Positions 4,150 through 60,553 of a DNA stretch of 64,000 bases are shown piece after piece; positions within the stretch are counted from its first letter, which is position 1; each line of letters begins with the position of its first letter. The stretch spans positions 608-64,607 of the forward strand of contig CAVCWT010000012.1 in the NCBI GenBank assembly GCA_963605745.1, written 5' to 3'. The notes below the pieces were generated by a model that ran no database searches, had not been told where the DNA came from, and worked only from the letters and a program-made list of their open reading frames with translations. Position numbers and translations under genes: made by a program. Origin of the DNA: Lachnospiraceae bacterium (GTDB lineage Bacteria > Bacillota > Clostridia > Lachnospirales > Lachnospiraceae).

Positions 4150-4207
4150 TAGATTGGCTCCTTACAGACCAATTCATGATTCACAGCAGATCGTGCGAAA
4201 CAGATAC
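4150..4207 (+). repeat. degenerate right half of the 156-bp three-hairpin TIR element
   Basis: ccaattcatgat...gtgcgaaacagatac matches the element end ccaattcatgatagaaatcgccaggtgttaaacagatac (reverse complement of the 46631 copy). Confidence 0.5.
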
Positions 4208-4408: not shown

Positions 4409-7048
4409 CTATATTTTTAGTATCTGTTTAACATCCGCATCCAGCTCGCCGCCTCGCACCACAATCTGAATGGTACTGCCTTCCCGGACCTTGTCCTCCA
4501 GGATGAGGCGCGCTGCCATGGTCTCCACGTTCTTCTGAATATATCTCTTCAAAGGACGTGCGCCGTAGCTGGGATCATAGGCTGCATCCACCACATAGTC
4601 CTTGGCCTCGTCTGTCATGTCGACCGTAATTTCGCGGTCTGCAAGGCGCTTGTTCAGATCCTGCAGAATCAGATCGATGATGCCGCCAATGTTATCTTTT
4701 GTGAGCGGACGGAACATGATGATCTCATCCAGGCGGTTTAGGAACTCCGGCCGGAAACTCTGCCGCAGAATCGCTTCCACCGCATTCTGGCACGTCTCGG
4801 AAATCTCCGGCGCCGCATCCGCTTTGTCGTTCTCCTGCTGCTCAATGTCCGCCAGAATCTGCTGTGCGCCAAGGTTGGAGGTCAGGATGATGATGGTGTT
4901 CTTAAAGTCCACGGTGCGTCCCTGAGAATCTGTGATCCGGCCGTCATCGAGCACCTGCAAAAGTACATTGAACACATCCGGATGTGCCTTCTCCACTTCA
5001 TCGAACAAAACCACCGAATACGGGTGTCTGCGAACCGCTTCTGTCAGCTGGCCGCCTTCCTCATATCCCACATATCCGGGTGCTGCACCGATAAGACGCG
5101 ACACGCTGTATTTTTCCATGTATTCTGACATGTCGATACGGACCATGTTCTTTTCATCGTCGAACAGTGCTCTTGCCAGAGCCTTGGCGAGCTCTGTTTT
5201 GCCAACGCCGGTAGGTCCGAGGAACAGAAAGGAACCAATCGGCTTGGTCGGGTCCTTGATACCTGCCTTGGAGCGCATGATCGCCTCCGCCACCTTGGTC
5301 ACGGCCTCATCCTGCCCCACAACGCTCTTATGCAGCTCCTTTGGAAGGTGCAGGGTCTTGCTGCGTTCCGATTCCGTCAGCTTTGCCACAGGAATCCCCG
5401 TCCATTTCGAAACAATACGACCGATCTCTTCCTCTGTGACCTTCTCGTGAACCAGACTCTCGCCCTTGTTCTCTTCTGCTGCAGCAGCCGCTTCTTCGCC
5501 GGCCTTGATCTGGGCTTCGATCTCGGGGAGCCTTCCGTACTGCAGCTCACTGACCCTTCCATAGTCGCCGTTTCGCATGGCCAGTTCGATCTCCGATTGA
5601 ATACTGCTGCGCTCCTCTCGTAATTTAGCCAGGGAATCGGCCTTATCCTTCTCATTCTGCCATCTGGCCGTTTCTGCCGTATAGCGGTCATTCAGCTCTG
5701 CCATCTCCTTCTGCAACGTTTCGAGGCGCTCCTTCGAGAGGTTGTCGTCCTCCTTTTGCAGCTGGATCTCCTCGATCTTCATCTGCTCCAGGCGATGCTT
5801 CATCTCATCGAGCTTGGTCGGCATGGAATTCTGCTCGGTTTTGATCAGTGCGCAGGCTTCGTCCATCAGGTCGATGGCCTTATCCGGCAGGAACCGATCG
5901 CTGATGTAACGGTCGGACAGAACAGCCGCAGAAACCAGGGCATTGTCCTCGATCTTGACGCTGTGGTATACCTCGTAGCGCTCCTTCAGACCGCGCAGGA
6001 TCGAGATCGTATCCTCCACTGTCGGCTCATTTGCCATGACCGGCTGGAAACGTCTTTCCAATGCCGCATCCTTTTCAATGTATTCGCGGTATTCGTTCAG
6101 GGTCGTTGCGCCAATGCAGTGGAGCTCACCTCTTGCCAGCATGGGCTTTAACATATTGCCAGCATCCATAGAGCCTTCCGTCTTGCCGGCGCCAACGATA
6201 GTATGCAGCTCATCAATGAACAGAATGATCCTGCCCTCCGATGCCTTCACATCATCGAGCACTGCCTTTAACCGTTCCTCAAACTCGCCGCGATATTTGG
6301 CACCTGCTACCAGAGAGCCCATGTTCAGTGAAAAAATTTTTTTGTCCTTTAAAGAGGTCGGAACATCTCCCTTTGCAATTCTCTGTGCCAGCCCCTCTAC
6401 AATGGCGGTCTTGCCAACACCCGGCTCGCCAATGATGACAGGATTGTTCTTGGTTTTTCTCGAGAGGATCTGGATGACGCTCCGGATCTCTTCATCACGG
6501 CCAATGACAGGATCCATTTTCTGCTGGGCTGCCTTGGAAACGAGCTCCTCGCCGTATTTTTCCAGCGTGTCATAGGTGCTCTCCGGATTGTCGGAGGTCA
6601 CTCTCTGGTTGCCGCGCACGGTCTGCAGCGCCTGCAGAAAGCTCTCTCTTGAAATGCCAAAGTCCTTGTAGATCTGCCGTACTACATTGTTGGCATTACT
6701 GATCATAGCAAGGAACAGACACTCGATGGAGACATAGTCATCCCCTAACTTTTTCGCCTCATCCTCTGCACCGACGAGAACCTTGTTCAGGGAACTGCTG
6801 ACGTAATTCTGAACTCCGTCGCCGGAAACCTTCGGCAGACATTTCACGGCATTTAATACTCTTGCCGTAAAGGTGGCAGGATCAATGCCCATTTTCTCCA
6901 CAAGGCTTGCGATCAGACTGTCATCGACGGTCAGCATGCAATAGAGCAGATGCTCCTGATCAATCTGCTGATTGCCGTACTCCACAGCCATGTTCTGTGC
7001 GTTCTGGATGGATTCCAGAGATTTTTGTGTAAACTTTTGAATGTTCAT
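4409..7048 (-). CDS. clpB: ATP-dependent chaperone ClpB
   Basis: Clp N-domain, two AAA+ modules ([16 protein letters not shown]), long coiled-coil middle domain, [10 protein letters not shown] and GARPL motifs. Confidence 0.97.
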
Positions 7049-15281: not shown

Positions 15282-15302
15282 TTTCTCTCTCCTTGTCATT
15301 TT

Positions 15303-15458
15303 GTAGTTATTTAGCCCCCGCATCGAGGGTTTCCTACGGAAAATCTCGATGTGGCTGGGCAGAGGAGCTTCGCTCCTTGCCCACCCGGCAATTTCAATTA
15401 TGAATTTGTCCGCGAAGCGCCCAATTCATATTGGAATCGCAAGGTGCTAACCAGATAC
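15303..15458 (+). mobile_element. 156-bp MITE/REP-like element with terminal inverted repeats and three internal hairpins (full copy)
   Basis: Ends gtagttatttagccc...gtgctaaccagatac. About 118 nt closely match the reverse complement of 46631-46750. Same length and architecture as 34966-35121. Confidence 0.8.
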
Positions 15459-16100
15459 GTCATTTTTTTGCATTACTGCCAGAAAATCCTTCACTAAGGT
15501 CCCCGTCGTAATGTAGGACAGCACTCCGAATCCAAAGAAAAACCAGATAAAGGCGCCGATCGCCATCGTCGTATCGCTCAGATAGGTGAGATACGCACAG
15601 ATTCCGTGCAGTGCCGCCAATAGCAGTGCCTTCACAGGATTTCGAAAGGCAAAATAACACGCATTTATTACCAGCATTTTCATCCGGTTCTCAAAGCTTG
15701 CAATCACAGGGAACAGATACAACGCCAGGATAAGGAGCAGCGCCCCCATTGCCAGAATGGGATATCGGAACAGATCGATTGGACTCCCCGCCTCATTGCA
15801 GATCCGAATATCCGCATAGCCGAACACCGCCAGCAACGCAATCACAATCCAGGCAATGGTTCCCTTTACAAAGTTCTCCTTAAAGCCTTTCCAGAAGGTT
15901 TTAAAAACGCTCACCTCTCCGTCGTCCTTGTGAGCCTTCAGCATCAGATAACTTAATCCGCACCAGGATGCCCCAATGGTGACTATAGGAATCGAAAAGA
16001 ACAAAAACAACAGGTTCCCTACCACCACGATCCAGACACGATTCATCATCCTGCCCAGCAAGGTGTCATTTCCGAAAATCCCCAGCAGTCTGTTTCCCAT
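15447..16100 (-). CDS. YesL/DUF624-family membrane protein
   Basis: NLLFLFFSIPIVTIGAS and FWKGFKENF motifs; located in a sugar ABC operon. Confidence 0.85.
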   Translation of the reverse strand: MGNRLLGIFGNDTLLGRMMNRVWIVVVGNLLFLFFSIPIVTIGASWCGLSYLMLKAHKDDGEVSVFKTFWKGFKENFVKGTIAWIVIALLAVFGYADIRICNEAGSPIDLFRYPILAMGALLLILALYLFPVIASFENRMKMLVINACYFAFRNPVKALLLAALHGICAYLTYLSDTTMAIGAFIWFFFGFGVLSYITTGTLVKDFLAVMQKNDVSG

Positions 16101-25957: not shown

Positions 25958-27513
25958 AGAGCATTCTCCTGTTTTCTGATCTTATTCCAAAACGCCTTGA
26001 TTTCTGCAGGACGGAACATCACGGCCAAAATCACCACGCCGCACCCTGCCGCCGACACAGCTCCCTTCAGAATCAACTGGATCCAGCTGTCTGCAGAAGG
26101 CAGAACCATCTCCAGCAAAACCGCAGCAGCAGTTCCTGCAGCGCACGAAGCAACATGCCGGCCAATGACAGGATAAAAGGTTCCCATTCCAACCCCCATG
26201 CAATACGATGCATACAGCGGGGTATCAATAAAATGAACACAGTTGATCACCAGTGTGGTAATCACCACAGCATAGGCGCCGTAGTGCGTCTGCACCAAAA
26301 GGACATACATTGCCAGCACATTCGCCACTCCCATGGCGATGGTAATGAGGCAGGGAATTTTTAATTTTTTGGTCAGCGTAAAGACGTAATACAAGGGATT
26401 CACAACGCCGACCGCAACATCGCTGAACAGAACGATCATCAAGAGCCGGTAAATGAACTCCGTATTCTGTTCCGGTAGCCAGAGAACAAGGAAATTCCTC
26501 CCGCACACCCAGAACACACAGATGATCAGACTGCAGAAAAGACCCGTCGTTTTCATGGTCAACCGGAACAGCTTGACCTGCCCCTCTGTGTCCTTTTGCG
26601 CATACAGAACCAGCTGCCGCGGCTGAAAGCTCTCGCTGATTCTCTTGACCAGTGCATAGCAGAACATGCCCAGATTTTTGGCAATGGAGATTTCTCCCAG
26701 CACCACAGCATTCAGCATCAGATCCGTGATGAGAAGATCCAGTCCGCTGTTCAGGACATCCCCCAGATTGTTCAGGGCATTCCAGATTCCCGAAACAAAC
26801 AGCTCATACACCGCCGAAAGTGAGCACTGTTTCCTCGAAAAATGCAGCTCCGGCGTAAGCTCCCCGGTAAGGGAAATGTATCTCACCAGCAAAAAAGACG
26901 ACGCGCACAGATATGCAATTCCCACATACCATACATGGGGCGGCAGTATGAGGCACAGTCCCAAAAGCACAACAGCCTGCAGGACATAGCTGACACTCTT
27001 GGTTCGTTCTGCCAGATCCAGGCGATTGGCAATAAAGGCTGCTGTGTTGAATGCAGTCCTTAGAAGCGTCAGAAGGTAGTTGACAAGGACCAGCGCAAAA
27101 AGGATTTTCACATCCCCGCACAGATTCTCCGGAATGACAATGAAGGCCTCCATGTGCCGGATGACAAAGGCTCCCGGCACGAGAATGCAGACAGCCATCA
27201 TCAAATCGGCGGCAATGACCGAGGAATAGAAACGGTTCGCCCGTTCCAGATCCTTACGGTGATAGGCCACCGAAATAAACCGGCCGGCAAACGTATTCAG
27301 CGCTGCCGCTGCAATATCAATGTATCCGGTAAAGGACGTTGCCAGGGAAACGAATCCGTACGCCTCCACGCCGATGTTGTTCGTGACATAGGGTGTGATC
27401 AGAAACTGCATGAAATAATTGATCAGGACCGCCGAAATCGACCAGATCATATTCATGGCAATCATCTGTTCATTCGTCCGCTTTTCTTTTTTTTCGGCCT
27501 TTCCTCCCATCAT
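25954..27513 (-). CDS. wzx: polysaccharide flippase Wzx (MOP superfamily)
   Basis: 12-14 TM, ITPYVTNNIGVEAYG motif; ATGA overlaps with both neighbours. Confidence 0.85.
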   Translation of the reverse strand: MMGGKAEKKEKRTNEQMIAMNMIWSISAVLINYFMQFLITPYVTNNIGVEAYGFVSLATSFTGYIDIAAAALNTFAGRFISVAYHRKDLERANRFYSSVIAADLMMAVCILVPGAFVIRHMEAFIVIPENLCGDVKILFALVLVNYLLTLLRTAFNTAAFIANRLDLAERTKSVSYVLQAVVLLGLCLILPPHVWYVGIAYLCASSFLLVRYISLTGELTPELHFSRKQCSLSAVYELFVSGIWNALNNLGDVLNSGLDLLITDLMLNAVVLGEISIAKNLGMFCYALVKRISESFQPRQLVLYAQKDTEGQVKLFRLTMKTTGLFCSLIICVFWVCGRNFLVLWLPEQNTEFIYRLLMIVLFSDVAVGVVNPLYYVFTLTKKLKIPCLITIAMGVANVLAMYVLLVQTHYGAYAVVITTLVINCVHFIDTPLYASYCMGVGMGTFYPVIGRHVASCAAGTAAAVLLEMVLPSADSWIQLILKGAVSAAGCGVVILAVMFRPAEIKAFWNKIRKQENAL

Positions 27514-28217
27514 GCCTTTTCTCCGGGATTTGAATTTACTGAATTCATTTTCAAAAACCATTCTGCGCACAAAAATCCTGCTGCCGTGCCCAACGTATTG
27601 AACAGAATATCATTGATATCACACTGCCCCAGCTGCAAAACGAGCTGGATCAGTTCAATAACCGTAGAAACCATCATTCCGGTCATGGTGCCCTGGAGCG
27701 GAGTCAGTTTTTTCCTGCCGCTAAGGAGCACCAGCGATCCTCCGAAGGGGAGAAATAAGACCGCATTCAAAAGTCCATGCCGCCACCAGTATGCAGAGCT
27801 CCCGTTTCTGCCAAAGATCAACAGTTCCATACAAACCGAGGTATCCTGGCTGCCGTCTCGCATCAAAAGTGTTGCGCCGAGAATCAACAGGAGGCTCAGC
27901 AGCAGGCATGTCAGACCGCGTTTTTGTAGACTTTTCCTGTTTTCTGTCAGAAAGTGTGCGCCGCCTGCCGCTGCCAGAAAGACCGTCGCAATCAGGCACA
28001 GCCACAGCATGCACAGCGAGCTTCTCATCATAAACGACATGCAGCCGAACGCAGTTCCTGCAAACAAAAACAACACGGCAACCACAACACCGGAGGCCCT
28101 TGCGCTTTTTTTGTCATAGGCCCTTCCCTTCAGCATCTGCAGGGTCCATATATAATCCATGATCAGCAGCAGAATGCTAAGAACCACTCTTGCCGATTCC
28201 TGCCTTGCTAAACCCAT
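27510..28217 (-). CDS. VanZ-family membrane protein
   Basis: LLNAVLFLPFG...IELIQL...CDINDILFNTLG motif. Confidence 0.85.
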   Translation of the reverse strand: MGLARQESARVVLSILLLIMDYIWTLQMLKGRAYDKKSARASGVVVAVLFLFAGTAFGCMSFMMRSSLCMLWLCLIATVFLAAAGGAHFLTENRKSLQKRGLTCLLLSLLLILGATLLMRDGSQDTSVCMELLIFGRNGSSAYWWRHGLLNAVLFLPFGGSLVLLSGRKKLTPLQGTMTGMMVSTVIELIQLVLQLGQCDINDILFNTLGTAAGFLCAEWFLKMNSVNSNPGEKA

Positions 28218-28254: not shown

Positions 28255-28375
28255 GTATCTGTTTAACCATATCGAGGATTTGCAGCGCAAGGACAACACC
28301 ACGCATGCGGTTTCCCCGCAGCAAGGAGTGAGCAAAGCCACTCCAAGGTACCAAAGATGCAGGTGCTAAAACTAC
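28255..28375 (-). repeat. diverged, internally altered copy of the TIR element
   Basis: Ends gtatctgtttaac and gatgcaggtgctaaaactac; internal ggagtgagcaaagccactcc resembles hairpin 2. Confidence 0.55.
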
Positions 28376-33113: not shown

Positions 33114-34684
33114 CCCTTCTGACCTTCACGAATGATATTCTCATACTCCTTCAGAGAAATGGGTTTTGAAAAATAATATCCCTGCCCGGCAGTACACCCA
33201 CTGCGCTTTAACTGCCCCAGTTGGTCCATGTTCTCAATTCCCTCTGCTGATACCTGAAAATTCAGCGTCCTTGCCTTTTCCAGTATGGCCGGAATCGACA
33301 GTCCATTCGGATCCTGATTCACATAACGAAGATCCAGCTTCAGGCTATCTGCTGCAATATGTCCGATGGAATCCAGTGCCACAAAATCACCGGAAAAACC
33401 ATCCACAACCACCTTGAATCCGCTCTGCATCAGCCTTGATTCCACATCAAATACTGCGCCATGTGTCTGCAGGTAGGCATTCTCTGCCAGCTCGATCACA
33501 AGATACTGCGGAGGAATCCGATATTTGGCCAGCATCTCGGAAAAGAATTCCGCAACATCCATGGCCAGAAGATCCGTTTTGGTAACATTAACAGAAATCG
33601 GCAGCGGCCGAATTCCCGCATTGACCCAGTCGCGTATTTTCCGGCACACCTGTTCCCAGATATACTGGTCCAGCTTGGTAATGTAGCCGTTGCTCTCCAG
33701 AACAGGCAGAAAGACCGCCGGCGAGATCATTCCCAATGTCGGATGCTGCCAGCGAACGAGTGCCTCTGCTCCTATGACTTTGCCGGTATTCAGATCATAC
33801 TGAGGCTGCACATAGAACACAAAGTTTCCGTTCTTCATTCCTTCCAGAATCTGCGGCATCAGAATCTGTTCGTTCATGGCAGACGGCGCCGCCCCCTGCA
33901 GTCCTGCAGACGCATTCGTCACAGAATACCCGGATGCTTTCGGCAGTCTCTTCAACAGCTCAATAACCTTGGCTGTTTCCTTGCGGCTGCGGTAACGATT
34001 CTGCTCCTCCACCGTCGGAATAACATTCTTATGAAACAGCTCCGTAAAAACACCGAGCTCCCGGCACATCATATTCCATGCAATCTGATAAATCAGATTG
34101 AACGCAATGGACAGGATTACACCCGCAATAGAGGTGTAAAATGCCGTTTCAATTCCGGAGAGCAGCGTCCGAACGCTGGAAAGGACCAGATCCACCGAGC
34201 CGAATCCCAGATTTCCAAGGCCCATGATCAGTCCCACGAAGGTTCCGAGAATGCCAAGGCCTGTCAAGGTCCCTGGAATCTGGCTGATCACCCCCTGCCA
34301 GCTCTCAAGGATCAGAACATCTTCATTGATGTATTCCTCAACATCACTCAAGATCTGCCCGGCGGACTGCTGCATGCGCACCTTCTCTCTGTACGCAAGA
34401 AAAAACCGGTTCAAACCCTTCTGGCGGAACAGATTCTCGTTTTCGGAAAGTGCGGACCATGCAGAATCTGCGTTCACCTCAATGGCATGCCGCACGTTTT
34501 TTTCGCCGCATCGGAAGCCCTTAAAATAGGACATCACCGGCAGGATGCCGCAAAATGTACCGGCAACAACAAAGAGCAGCATGACTCCCACACAGCAAAG
34601 AGACAGAAAATCCGGAGAATAAGCACACAAAAATCCTCCTGCCGCCAGCATCAGTATTGTTGCGAGATAGATCAGATTCTTCAC
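33110..34684 (-). CDS. MotA/TolQ/ExbB (ZorA-like) channel domain fused to an EAL domain
   Basis: IPGTLTGLGILGTFVGL...LLSGIETAFYTSIAG channel motifs; C-terminal QPQY, GAEALVRW, ISVN, LKLD, AEGIE, QGYYFSKP. GTG start with AAGGAG SD; ATGA overlap with the MotB-like gene. Confidence 0.85.
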   Translation of the reverse strand: MKNLIYLATILMLAAGGFLCAYSPDFLSLCCVGVMLLFVVAGTFCGILPVMSYFKGFRCGEKNVRHAIEVNADSAWSALSENENLFRQKGLNRFFLAYREKVRMQQSAGQILSDVEEYINEDVLILESWQGVISQIPGTLTGLGILGTFVGLIMGLGNLGFGSVDLVLSSVRTLLSGIETAFYTSIAGVILSIAFNLIYQIAWNMMCRELGVFTELFHKNVIPTVEEQNRYRSRKETAKVIELLKRLPKASGYSVTNASAGLQGAAPSAMNEQILMPQILEGMKNGNFVFYVQPQYDLNTGKVIGAEALVRWQHPTLGMISPAVFLPVLESNGYITKLDQYIWEQVCRKIRDWVNAGIRPLPISVNVTKTDLLAMDVAEFFSEMLAKYRIPPQYLVIELAENAYLQTHGAVFDVESRLMQSGFKVVVDGFSGDFVALDSIGHIAADSLKLDLRYVNQDPNGLSIPAILEKARTLNFQVSAEGIENMDQLGQLKRSGCTAGQGYYFSKPISLKEYENIIREGQKG

Positions 34685-34715
34685 AGCTTTGTGTTCTCCT
34701 TACCGTTTCCATTTG

Positions 34716-35121
34716 CTGTTTAGCCTTGGCCACATGAGGGTTTCAATCATGAATCCGTCCGCGGGGCGGCCGATTCATGTTGAAACCCACATAACACATA
34801 TCAAAAATGTAACTGTTTAGCACCCACATCTCTCATTTGCGTTGCAAATGAGAGATGTGGGTGGCCAGAGGCCCTTCGGGCCTTGGCCACATGAGGGTTT
34901 CAATCATGAATCCGTCCGCGGGGCGGCCGATTCATGTTGAAACCCACATAACACATATCAAAAATGTAACTGTTTAGCACCCACATCTCTCATTTGCGTT
35001 GCAAATGAGAGATGTGGGTGGCCAGAGGCCCTTCGGGCCTTGGCCACATGAGGGTTTCAATCATGAATCCGTCCGCGGGGCGGCCGATTCATGTTGAAAC
35101 CCACATGTGCTAACCAGATAC
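34716..35121 (+). repeat. tandem array (period 157 bp, ~2.5 identical units) of the three-hairpin TIR element
   Basis: gccttggccacatgaggg recurs at 34723, 34880 and 35037. Left TIR gtaactgtttagcac at 34809 and 34966; right TIR gtgctaaccagatac at 35107-35121. Confidence 0.92.
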
Positions 35122-36309
35122 AAAAAATCGCTCATAGCCGTCCAGCAAAGCCTTGCTGGTGTGTTCCCAGGACAGCTCGTTCATAATCCGCTGCCTGCCG
35201 TACTCTCCCATGGTTTTGCGTTTGTCCGGATCCCGGAGCAGGCTTTCAATCTTTTCTGCCATGTCCGCCGCATTATTATTTTCTGCATACAGCGACGCCT
35301 CACCGGCAGAATATTTGCCCTCTGTCAGATCAAACTGCACAATCGGTTTGCCAAGGGCCATGTATTCCAGGACCTTGTTCATCGTGCTCTTGTCATTCAT
35401 GGCATTGTACCGGTCACTGTTCACACAGACATCTGCCGTGTTCAGATACCGGAGCATTACATCATCCGGTGCTCTTCCCGTGAATTCCACGCAGTCATCC
35501 AGCTGCATCTCGTGAGCCTTTTTCTGCAGAGCTTCCAGATGCGGACCACCTCCGACAATTCCCCAGAATACATTGTTCTCCCGCTGTTTGATGTATGCTG
35601 CAGCTTCCAGAATGAAATCCACACCCTCCTGCTGGCCGATGACACCCAGATACCCCACCATGTAGGGATATCCTCTTCGGATAGAGGGATCCGGCGGCAG
35701 AATTCTCATGCGCTCCAGTCTCGGTCCGCTCCGCAGAACGATCACTTTCTCCGGATCCATCCCGCCCCGTTCAATGGCAATCTTTCGATAGCTCTCATTC
35801 GTAACAAATGCAAAGCTGCAGTGCCGGTAGGTCTGCCGTTCCAGCCACTTCAGTCCGGCGTACAGCACACCGCTTTCCTTGCCGAACTTGGCACCAAAGA
35901 GTTCCGGACAAATATCGTGATGATCGAATACATAGGAAACCCCGCGGCTTTTGAATCTTTTGGCAACCAGATAGATATCATCCGGCGGATTGCACCCCTG
36001 GATCACCTCGAACCCGATCTTCCGGTAGACGAGCTCCGCAAGTCGGATCTCTTCTTTGAGTGCGGTGCTGTATTCACGCAGATATCCGATGAATCCGTTT
36101 CCCTCCTTTGGCATGTCATGACGGAAAATATGAACCCCCTCCAGGGTTTCTTCCTCCGCCTCATACCCTTTTCCTTTCGGACAAATCACGGAAACGGTAT
36201 AGCCATTTTGAACCAGTGTTGTCGCTTCCTGCCACACCCTCGTATCAAACGGCACCGGAAGGTTCTCTACAATAATCAGTATGCTGTGTTTTTTTGTTGC
36301 ATCTTCCAC
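35110..36309 (-). CDS. glycosyltransferase family 4 (WbuB-like)
   Basis: IIVENLPVPFDTRVWQEA, FDHHDICPE and STMNKVLEYMALGKP motifs; GTG start at 36309 just after the asnB-like stop. Confidence 0.88.
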   Translation of the reverse strand: MEDATKKHSILIIVENLPVPFDTRVWQEATTLVQNGYTVSVICPKGKGYEAEEETLEGVHIFRHDMPKEGNGFIGYLREYSTALKEEIRLAELVYRKIGFEVIQGCNPPDDIYLVAKRFKSRGVSYVFDHHDICPELFGAKFGKESGVLYAGLKWLERQTYRHCSFAFVTNESYRKIAIERGGMDPEKVIVLRSGPRLERMRILPPDPSIRRGYPYMVGYLGVIGQQEGVDFILEAAAYIKQRENNVFWGIVGGGPHLEALQKKAHEMQLDDCVEFTGRAPDDVMLRYLNTADVCVNSDRYNAMNDKSTMNKVLEYMALGKPIVQFDLTEGKYSAGEASLYAENNNAADMAEKIESLLRDPDKRKTMGEYGRQRIMNELSWEHTSKALLDGYERFFVSG

Positions 36310-46630: not shown

Positions 46631-46755
46631 GTATCTGTTTAACACCTGGCGATTTCTATCATGAATTGGGCGCCTCGCGCACAAATTCATGACTGAAATT
46701 GTCAGGTGGGCAAGGAGCAAAGCTCCTCTGCCCAGCCACATCGAGGTTTTCTAAA
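46631..46755 (-). mobile_element. copy of the 156-bp three-hairpin TIR element (left end deleted)
   Basis: Reverse complement matches 15341-15458 along its length; starts gtatctgtttaacac. Confidence 0.8.
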
Positions 46756-46769
46756 TGCAAGGAGAAAGC

Positions 46770-60431: not shown

Positions 60432-60445
60432 GGTGTCTTGACACC
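60432..60445. promoter_or_regulatory. putative NiaR operator
   Basis: Palindrome GGTGTC-TT-GACACC just downstream of the -10, upstream of an operon encoding NiaR. Confidence 0.7.
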
Positions 60446-60553
60446 TGACAACTTCATTTTAGTCGATCTTTATTCGCATTGGTGCCTGTGCGAGCAGGCA
60501 TGATCGTTTTAGCGTCCGATTCATGTCGAAATCGTCAGGTGCTAAACAATTAC
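60441..60553 (+). repeat. diverged right half of the TIR element in the 5' leader
   Basis: ccgattcatgtcgaaatcgtcaggtgctaaacaattac matches the element 3' end; cacctgacaacttca matches cacctgacaatttca. Confidence 0.6.

Follow-up and report, generated by a model that had tools for sequence, protein, structure and literature searches.

The 156-bp repeat at 15303-15458 is, with a probability of roughly 0.93, a MITE with IS66-family ends, namely, a small transposon that has no enzyme of its own. The window, by which we mean the whole analyzed stretch of 64,000 nucleotides, contains this copy and a second one of equal length at 34966-35121, and we verified the TIRs and three hairpins that the first-pass annotation had described for both. 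That annotation had left the choice between a MITE/REP-type mobile element and a structured RNA family; the MITE reading is borne out by ends of the IS66 family, ISBst12 group, and by an 8-bp target duplication. This class of transposon is already known, and the MITE itself is ordinary. Stable folds are often remarked on in MITEs, whereas here specific constraints act on the fold, and the interior is, at slightly better than even odds, selected as folded single-stranded DNA during propagation. The element touches approximately 245 loci of the 2.9-Mb genome and rewrites gene ends, and it bears on two open questions, namely, how IS66-family elements transpose and what the orphan Clostridiales-1 motif is. 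No published description of this element was found in the open literature searched, nor was an IS66-derived MITE found in a limited search covering parts of the sources; PMC3942029 and PMC12888890 were drawn on for exclusion only.

Copies of the element in the window

The copy at 15303-15458 is flanked by a perfect 8-bp target duplication, GTCATTTT, which is absent from the first-pass annotation, as is a tandem array at approximately 34713-34965, immediately upstream of the second copy. The copy at 34966-35121 has no clear target duplication, with four of eight positions mismatched. The coordinates of all copies and parts are collected in Table 1. As observed in the region 34713-35121, the array runs head to tail with a 157-bp period and 100% identity, reflecting either a recent duplication or an assembly artefact, and arrays resembling it also occur on contigs C7, C21, and C43 of this genome.

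Table 1 Features of the element in the window. Arms A, B, and C correspond to hairpins 3, 2, and 1 of the first-pass annotation.
Feature	Position	Strand	Remarks
Full-length MITE copy	15303..15458	-	minus is the better-folding strand; 131 bits
Target-site duplication, left copy	15295..15302	.	GTCATTTT, 8 bp
Target-site duplication, right copy	15459..15466	.	GTCATTTT, 8 bp
Left TIR, degenerate in the 15303 copy	15303..15318	+	family consensus GTAWCTRTTYAGCACC
Right TIR of the 15303 copy	15443..15458	-	gives the upstream MusI-like gene its last three codons and stop
Arm C	15318..15354	-	cGNAg loop; tandem G·A of the consensus is Watson-Crick here
Arm B	15356..15383	-	cGAAg loop; conserved single-C bulge
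Arm A	15384..15444	-	long; conserved A bulge, purine-purine mismatch, pyrimidine loop
Full-length MITE copy	34966..35121	-	157 bits; right TIR terminates the upstream glycosyltransferase ORF
Tandem copy without right TIR	34809..34948	-	matches bases 1-141 of the 34966 copy exactly; period 157
Deleted tandem copy	34713..34791	-	TIR remnant, half of arm B, and arm A; left limit by eye
One-ended copy, opposite orientation	46631..46760	+	114 bits in the profile search, 93 bits in a second scan; enters nested hairpin module
Decayed relative of the long variant (about 250 bp), with internal deletion	28255..28375	+	nested hairpin modules; by eye
Remnant: arm A outer stem and right TIR	60441..60553	-	profile match only at 60511-60552
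Remnant: arm A fragment and right TIR	4165..4207	-	by eye, with TIR match at 4193

Further copies had been proposed at 46631, 28255, 60441, and about 4150. The first of these stood as a one-ended copy, and the other three turned out to be only decayed remnants, of which the segment 60511-60552 alone was detected by the profile; the others were read by eye, the one at 4193 from a TIR match, and 28255-28375 gave no match in profile searches. An ORF at 27510-28217 gave a weak match to VanZ-family models, far below curated cut-offs. The TIR pattern itself matched eight times in the window, against 0.5 expected. In both upstream genes, the final three codons and the TAG stop (VSG*) come from the TIR, at 15447-15458 and 35110-35121; this stop is present in the TTTAG form of the TIR and would be lacking in the TTCAG form. 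At 4420-4434, inside the 3' end of the clpB ORF (4409-7048), we also observed a single TIR-like end together with several bases resembling the MITE, which has possibly been fused into the ClpB C terminus.

The genome-wide family and its probable partner transposase

Additional copies were abundant in the whole genome (2.86 Mb, 98.4% complete), which gave 291 non-overlapping profile matches in 245 loci, four of the 291 lying inside ORFs according to crude ORF calls. TIR-like ends numbered 304 in the genome and none in 0.6 Mb of shuffled sequence; most are unpaired because the opposite side has decayed or been deleted. The TIR is 16 bp long, and the target duplication is 8 bp. Among 33 TIR-bounded copies of 145-162 bp, the duplication length peaked at 8 bp, with eight exact duplications and 14 when one mismatch was allowed, and no other length from 2 to 12 gave more than two exact; for congener copies, the corresponding 8-bp values were 25 and 35 of 77. 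The unit inside the 8-bp duplication is always the TIR-to-TIR element. No autonomous element was found between paired TIRs of this genome, where all 14 pairs more than 400 bp apart lacked a target duplication.

BLAST located the element in 17 of 85 congeners and in none of 24 genomes of other families. Viral contigs, scanned with one arm-B pattern, gave no match, and neither did plasmids or phages. A full MITE copy was adjacent to the orthologue of the gene beside 15303 in none of four congeners, in which the genes are approximately 70% identical and synteny is broken; for the second locus (34966), no orthologue was found in five genomes, and no exact empty site came to light. With crude gene calls, the orientation of copies was unbiased relative to neighboring genes (88:79, n = 167, p 0.54) and showed no preference for the strand carrying most genes, which roughly stands in for the leading strand (95:77, n = 172, p 0.19). 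Gene contexts were near background, with 167 tandem, 25 convergent, and 25 divergent sites vs 944, 118, and 137.

IS66 ends start with GTAA and are accompanied by 8-bp duplications. The MITE likewise has a TIR that begins with GTAAC or GTATC, contains the core CTRTTYAGCA, and resembles GTAACTRYTCAGCA, together with an 8-bp DR, which places its ends in the ISBst12 group of the IS66 family, and autonomous elements of this kind occur in the same genus. According to the part of PMC12898284 consulted, ISDge4 of the ISBst12 group has the TIR GTAACTGCTCAGCA and an 8-bp DR. Among 30 IS66 loci of the genus, two single-ORF elements, L052 and L050, had near-matching ends, and both proteins scored above the NCBIfam IS66 cut-off. 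L052 (1,988 bp) has the TIR GTAACTRTTCAGAACCCC and a DR matching at 8/8 positions; L050 (1,911 bp) has no target duplication, and one of its ends, GTATCTGTTTAGGACC, has one mismatch to the MITE consensus. Both G105, the genome of L050, and G106, which has a fragment ending in TTTAG (L072), carry the MITE. In 31 of 81 related loci, we found an IR pair with an 8-bp DR, giving the consensus GTAACTRTTCAG, and the MITE consensus differs from the ends of L050, L099, L138, and L166 at one to two of 16 positions.

Unlike these autonomous elements, the MITE is only about 155 bp long, has no ORF, often has T instead of C at TIR position 10, and has an interior dissimilar to 37 autonomous loci. Since it has no ORF, it is not an IS, and the transposase sits in separate elements of congeners. 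The interior gave no profile match in the 81 loci and no model match in the 37 IS66 loci and is therefore not the product of a simple internal deletion. The observation that the window contains no cognate transposase extended to the genome, in which whole-genome searches found no ISBst12-type transposase; the copies here may therefore be immobile now. A pattern combining the TIR with a transposase tail matched in one of 401 genomes, at a truncated end.

Other candidate partners were rejected. The one IS66 of this genome, a classical IS66 on C111, has different ends (GTAAGCGC), and the IS256 (Mutator-like) element on C112 also has other ends, as do 15 ISLre2 loci from 10 congeners; ISLre2 gave no match in this genome, where its control was silent too. 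The suggestion of a REP/RAYT type is not supported because no Y1 (HUH) transposase was found in this 98.4% complete genome (the control was found in 6/14) and because the element has TIRs and a target duplication. Two further kinds of IS66-like loci were observed in congeners. L060, L063, L065, L067, and L070 make up another group of single-ORF elements, 2.2-2.9 kb long and encoding 530-634 aa, with GTTAC(T/A)(A/G)TTCA ends and perfect 8-bp DRs, and genome G075 has at least nine copies of one of them. L053, also in G075, represents IS66-like ORFs of 773 aa in 13 copies, in which the Pfam domain match falls into two pieces with an insertion between them.

Given the ends and the duplication, mobilization by an ISBst12-type enzyme appears likely. 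The transposase acting on the MITE in trans would be a single-ORF DDE enzyme of the IS66 family, ISBst12 group, which would recognize the 16-bp TIRs and make an 8-bp staggered cut in the target. The interior would then be a separate structural module and not a deletion product of an autonomous IS, and inserted copies would decay neutrally by point mutation and internal deletion. In the parts of the literature consulted, the transposition mechanism of the IS66 family is described as insufficiently characterized (PMC12898284), and IS66 proteins are described as binding the beta-clamp, with no orientation bias in the IS66b group (PMC3971601).

Fold, covariation, and templated correction

On one strand, the TIR stem and three abutting arms make a four-way junction, in which arm A is long with a cTTg cap, arm B has a cGNAg cap and a C bulge, and arm C combines a tandem G·A with a loop that is usually cGNAg. 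The minus-strand DNA fold had z = -6.8 for the 15303 copy and z = -14.4 for the 34966 copy, each vs 200 shuffles. In longer variants, additional hairpins lie nested in the arm C or arm B tip, and the junction is retained. We observed such variants of 250-322 bp at C3:16380-16629, C22:41-290, C95:64-314, C50:2101-2350, and C26:21420-21741 of this genome, with the extra modules nested in the arm C tip and some of these again carrying cGAAg loops. Three of the long variants have the same module set, and the long form has therefore also propagated.

For the analysis of covariation, 107 distinct copies from 17 genomes were aligned, of which this genome contributed 31 and 16 congeners the other 76; the congener copies were top BLAST hits, and insertion variant L222 and partial copies were excluded. 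The minus strand forms 62 pairs in four helices, and 95.1% of the cells are paired (29-39% in slid controls). Thirty-nine of the 62 pairs change on both sides, a number reached by none of 500 shuffles, and the covariation anticipated from two copies is strong in this set; pair 91:99 shows all four Watson-Crick types and is formed in 104 of the 107 copies. The shuffles ignore relatedness, and the 51 Watson-Crick pairs were therefore also mapped on the tree. Compensated changes made up 39 of 65 on internal branches vs 56 of 241 on terminal branches (Fisher p 5e-8), counts that recombination between copies inflates on both kinds of branch.

Templated correction of the palindromes operates, and part of the apparent compensation stems from it, including in the two full-length copies of the window. 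The first-pass annotation had inferred compensatory changes in all three hairpins of these copies; the difference in its hairpin 1 is partly of another kind, since there the tandem G·A of the consensus was made Watson-Crick from opposite arms in the 15303 and 34966 copies. This tandem G·A is kept in 91-92 of the 107 copies, and in 10 of the 17 copies that deviate from it (hand count), both pairs are Watson-Crick, copied from either arm; a mutational process can therefore mimic compensation. One copy has an inverted loop, and the TIR pair 10:157 switches jointly about nine times on the tree. New single breaks are unskewed between G·T and A·C (66:52 on terminal and 5:11 on internal branches), which leaves the strand asymmetry dependent on a small number of old columns: the G·T pairs 7:160, 21:74, and 121:139, the G·A pair 41:55, and the tandem G·A.

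Features outside the regular pairs are also conserved. The C bulge is kept in 98 and the A bulge in 95 of the 107 copies. The pyrimidine loop of arm A is cTTg in most copies, with the cap reading GCTTGC in 61 of 107; as RNA, gCUUGc is a stable tetraloop. Loop B is cGNAg in 102 of 107 copies, and its changes on the tree number 15 at N, three at G, and none at A. Loop C is cGNAg in only 65 copies, and a cAACg lineage of 17 has propagated. According to section 2.3 of PMC13037366, GNA alone among the 64 triloops forms a DNA mini-hairpin, and the tetraloop has a far weaker equivalent in RNA; elsewhere in the same source, as far as consulted, GNA mini-hairpins are described as binding SSB poorly and resisting nucleases. 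Because only GNA triloops qualify according to that source, cAACg in loop C would form no mini-hairpin. The free middle base of GNA, the kept bulges, and a tandem G·A retained across genera with unrelated stems point to DNA over RNA.

The proposed cloverleaf-like single-stranded structure under selection is thus backed by covariation, loop constraint, and conservation across genera, with a contribution from templated correction. If the fold is selected as single-stranded DNA during propagation, its most likely role would be to join both ends of a very short (about 150-bp) element on one strand, which could occur at the replication fork or in a copy-out step, and the folded strand would resist SSB and nucleases. 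Templated correction between arms would supply some of the paired changes, and selection would keep the loops, bulges, and mismatches.

Related folds and known systems

When genomes from other genera of the family were searched with a covariance model (20 candidates scored per genome), 11 of 149 had this plan, built from stems of unrelated sequence. The order-wide model scan found it in one of 11 genomes of the same family (G499) and one of 138 genomes of other families, the latter match being weak and without TIRs. By hand count in the 11 distant genomes, arm A ends in GCTTGC in 10 and GTTTAC in one, and a tandem G·A and a cGNAg loop each occur in arm C of 10. IS66 ends of the GTAAC or GTTAC type were found in seven of these genomes, in several cases together with 8-bp duplications; in the other four, the core lacks ISBst12-type TIRs. 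Three of five such distant genomes tested contained parts of a related transposase, and no recurring neighboring gene was seen at eight distant loci. The structural plan predates the sequence. A core copy was also observed directly after tuf at L283:191-322 (genome G194), closed by ATAAGCG...CGCTTAT; this closing stem resembles decayed ends of classical IS66 (GTAAGCG), suggesting that the core can pair with another IS66 subgroup.

Comparison with Rfam gave no match at gathering score in the window, which also contains no tRNA. An E-value scan of 34600-35200 returned weak unrelated matches only, with Clostridiales-1 not among them, and none of 15 loci (13 distant) matched at the Rfam gathering score. 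Of 10 MITE copies, two were matched by the model of Clostridiales-1 (RF01699), a four-stem motif, with scores of 39.2 and 32.2 bits on the better-folding strand and a gathering threshold of 48; a second scan reported one of 11 loci, below cut-off, and our own model R1 reached at best 21.5 bits on eight Clostridiales-1 loci. In the Rfam model, the first arm of the Clostridiales-1 consensus is long and ends in a GCUUGC cap, and another arm contains a tandem G·A. The MITE shares with it a four-way junction of approximately 160 nt, the GCUUGC-capped first arm, the tandem-G·A arm, the strand polarity, and a multicopy occurrence in the same genomes. Unlike Clostridiales-1, however, the MITE has the tandem G·A in the third arm and not the second, a single C bulge in arm 2, no GGGAG/GGAG internal loop (found in arm 3 of Clostridiales-1), and a closing stem that is an IS66 TIR, whereas Clostridiales-1 copies end otherwise. 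Since the arm order differs, the element is a relative of Clostridiales-1, not a member, and the link between the two is putative. Another GC-rich hairpin repeat, GCTAAGCTC...GCAAGCACCGAGG, was seen in two congeners (L008:1200-1390 and L267:2400-2600), with no Rfam match at cut-off, and the model of TwoAYGGAY RNA (RF01731) gave no match in this genome, its control being silent everywhere too.

Clostridiales-1 is itself a dispersed repeat, with eight copies over cut-off in this genome and matches over cut-off in 23 of 41 genus genomes, up to 45 per genome. By eye, its ends are not IS66-like, and several loops are cGNAg (13 copies here and eight in congeners). Three of the eight copies in this genome, identical and 173 nt long (L307-L309, at C16:20611-20783, C30:1918-2090, and C53:9337-9509), are each followed by a short hairpin and have TGAT...ATCA ends with 5-8-bp flanking direct repeats; here Clostridiales-1 behaves as a MITE from a different IS family would after a recent move. 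Because the MITE core resembles this orphan 'RNA', Clostridiales-1 may also be mobile DNA. It is classed as probably an RNA in the part of PMC2864571 consulted, and its repeat-like nature may already have been noted in Additional file 1 of that paper; such motif screens, according to the relevant part of PMC5737381, cannot easily separate single-stranded DNA motifs from RNA motifs. We tentatively propose, as an idea that has the odds against it, that this element, its counterparts in at least 12 other genera, and Clostridiales-1 belong to a superfamily of mobile 'cloverleaf' repeats in gut Clostridia, with a four-way junction in single-stranded DNA, GNA mini-hairpin loops, and a tandem G·A, whose IS66-type DDE transposition would proceed via, or be strongly boosted by, the folded strand. 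If this is true, the IS66 mechanism gains a single-strand step, and Clostridiales-1 is recast as a DNA motif. The DNA-type fold common to the element and Clostridiales-1 is the part worth testing.

The fold of the same MITE might instead be selected as RNA, with co-transcribed copies acting on mRNA stability, processing, or termination, or with the core being a Clostridiales-1-related small RNA captured between IS66 ends. Tandem G·A, G·U, and CUUG are all compatible with RNA. RNA folding gave z of about -10, and the minus strand folds better in 100 of the 107 copies as RNA and in 96 as DNA; the sub-threshold Clostridiales-1 scores, which fall on the better-folding strand, the listing of that motif as probably an RNA (PMC2864571), and the compensatory changes in bcr1 of Bacillus, a transcribed repeat according to the part of PMC3184786 consulted, also favor a fold in RNA. 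We consider selection as RNA unlikely, as the copies are unbiased in orientation (88:79), lie in gene contexts close to background, and occupy lineage-specific sites, with no full copy beside the orthologue of the 15303 gene in the four congeners. Moreover, the constrained loop is a GNA triloop, not GNRA or UNCG, and compensation is enriched on the propagating branches. The reading of the repeat as a free-standing structured RNA family is likewise disfavored, because the orientation is unbiased and its GNA loops are of a kind stable in DNA.

Selection on the fold of the MITE as single-stranded DNA must also be weighed against upkeep of the pairing by mutation, in which quasi-palindrome template switching copies the arms, recombination spreads whole-arm variants, and the bulges and mismatches are ancestral. 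The ten corrected copies and the inverted loop are as such a process predicts, double changes already account for 56 of the 241 on terminal branches, new breaks show no skew between G·T and A·C, and even the TIR pair 10:157 switches together, although this switch can instead reflect adaptation to a TTTAG-ended transposase. Correction should, however, erase the C bulge, the A bulge, and the G·A, which are kept in 98, 95, and 91-92 of 107 copies, and 10 of the 11 distant genomes, whose stems are unrelated, still have the tandem G·A; mutation also leaves unexplained why only the middle base of loop B varies, and we regard it as a distinctly unlikely account. The four-way core could, finally, be a mobile or replicative unit in its own right, handled by some HUH nuclease, primase, or host protein, with IS66 ends as one wrapper among several. 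The core does occur with GTAAC-, GTTAC-, ATAAGCG-type, or unrecognizable closing stems, true Clostridiales-1 copies are multicopy repeats with other ends, and extra hairpin modules are nested in the arm tips; nevertheless, this genome yielded no Y1/RAYT gene, the unit bounded by 8-bp duplications is always TIR-to-TIR in this family, and the eight distant loci have no recurring neighboring gene, which makes an independent core very improbable.

Selection of the MITE interior as single-stranded DNA has parallels in other mobile systems. REP/REPIN-RAYT elements and the ends of IS200/IS605 are strand-asymmetric single-stranded DNA hairpins with conserved mismatches or extrahelical bases, and the MITE, with its own strand asymmetry and conserved mismatches, possibly works like these and like attC sites. 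The latter are also hairpins of single-stranded DNA, according to the relevant part of PMC5737381. Unlike the MITE, all of these systems depend on HUH or tyrosine enzymes and make no 8-bp duplications. The MITEs Nezha, Chunjie, and nemis, as described in the part of PMC3184786 consulted, are likewise short, multicopy, and intergenic, with TIRs matching an IS, a target duplication, and a stable predicted fold; the present element is distinguished from them by its dense covariation, constrained loops, bulges, and cross-genus tandem G·A. By analogy, bcr1 of the Bacillus cereus group appears to be the closest behavioral precedent. In the same part of PMC3184786, bcr1 is described as about 155 bp long and mobile, with lineage-specific sites and a compensated, cruciform-like fold, and this description also sets it apart from our element by a 5-bp DR, two stem-loops, transcription, and no IS66 link.
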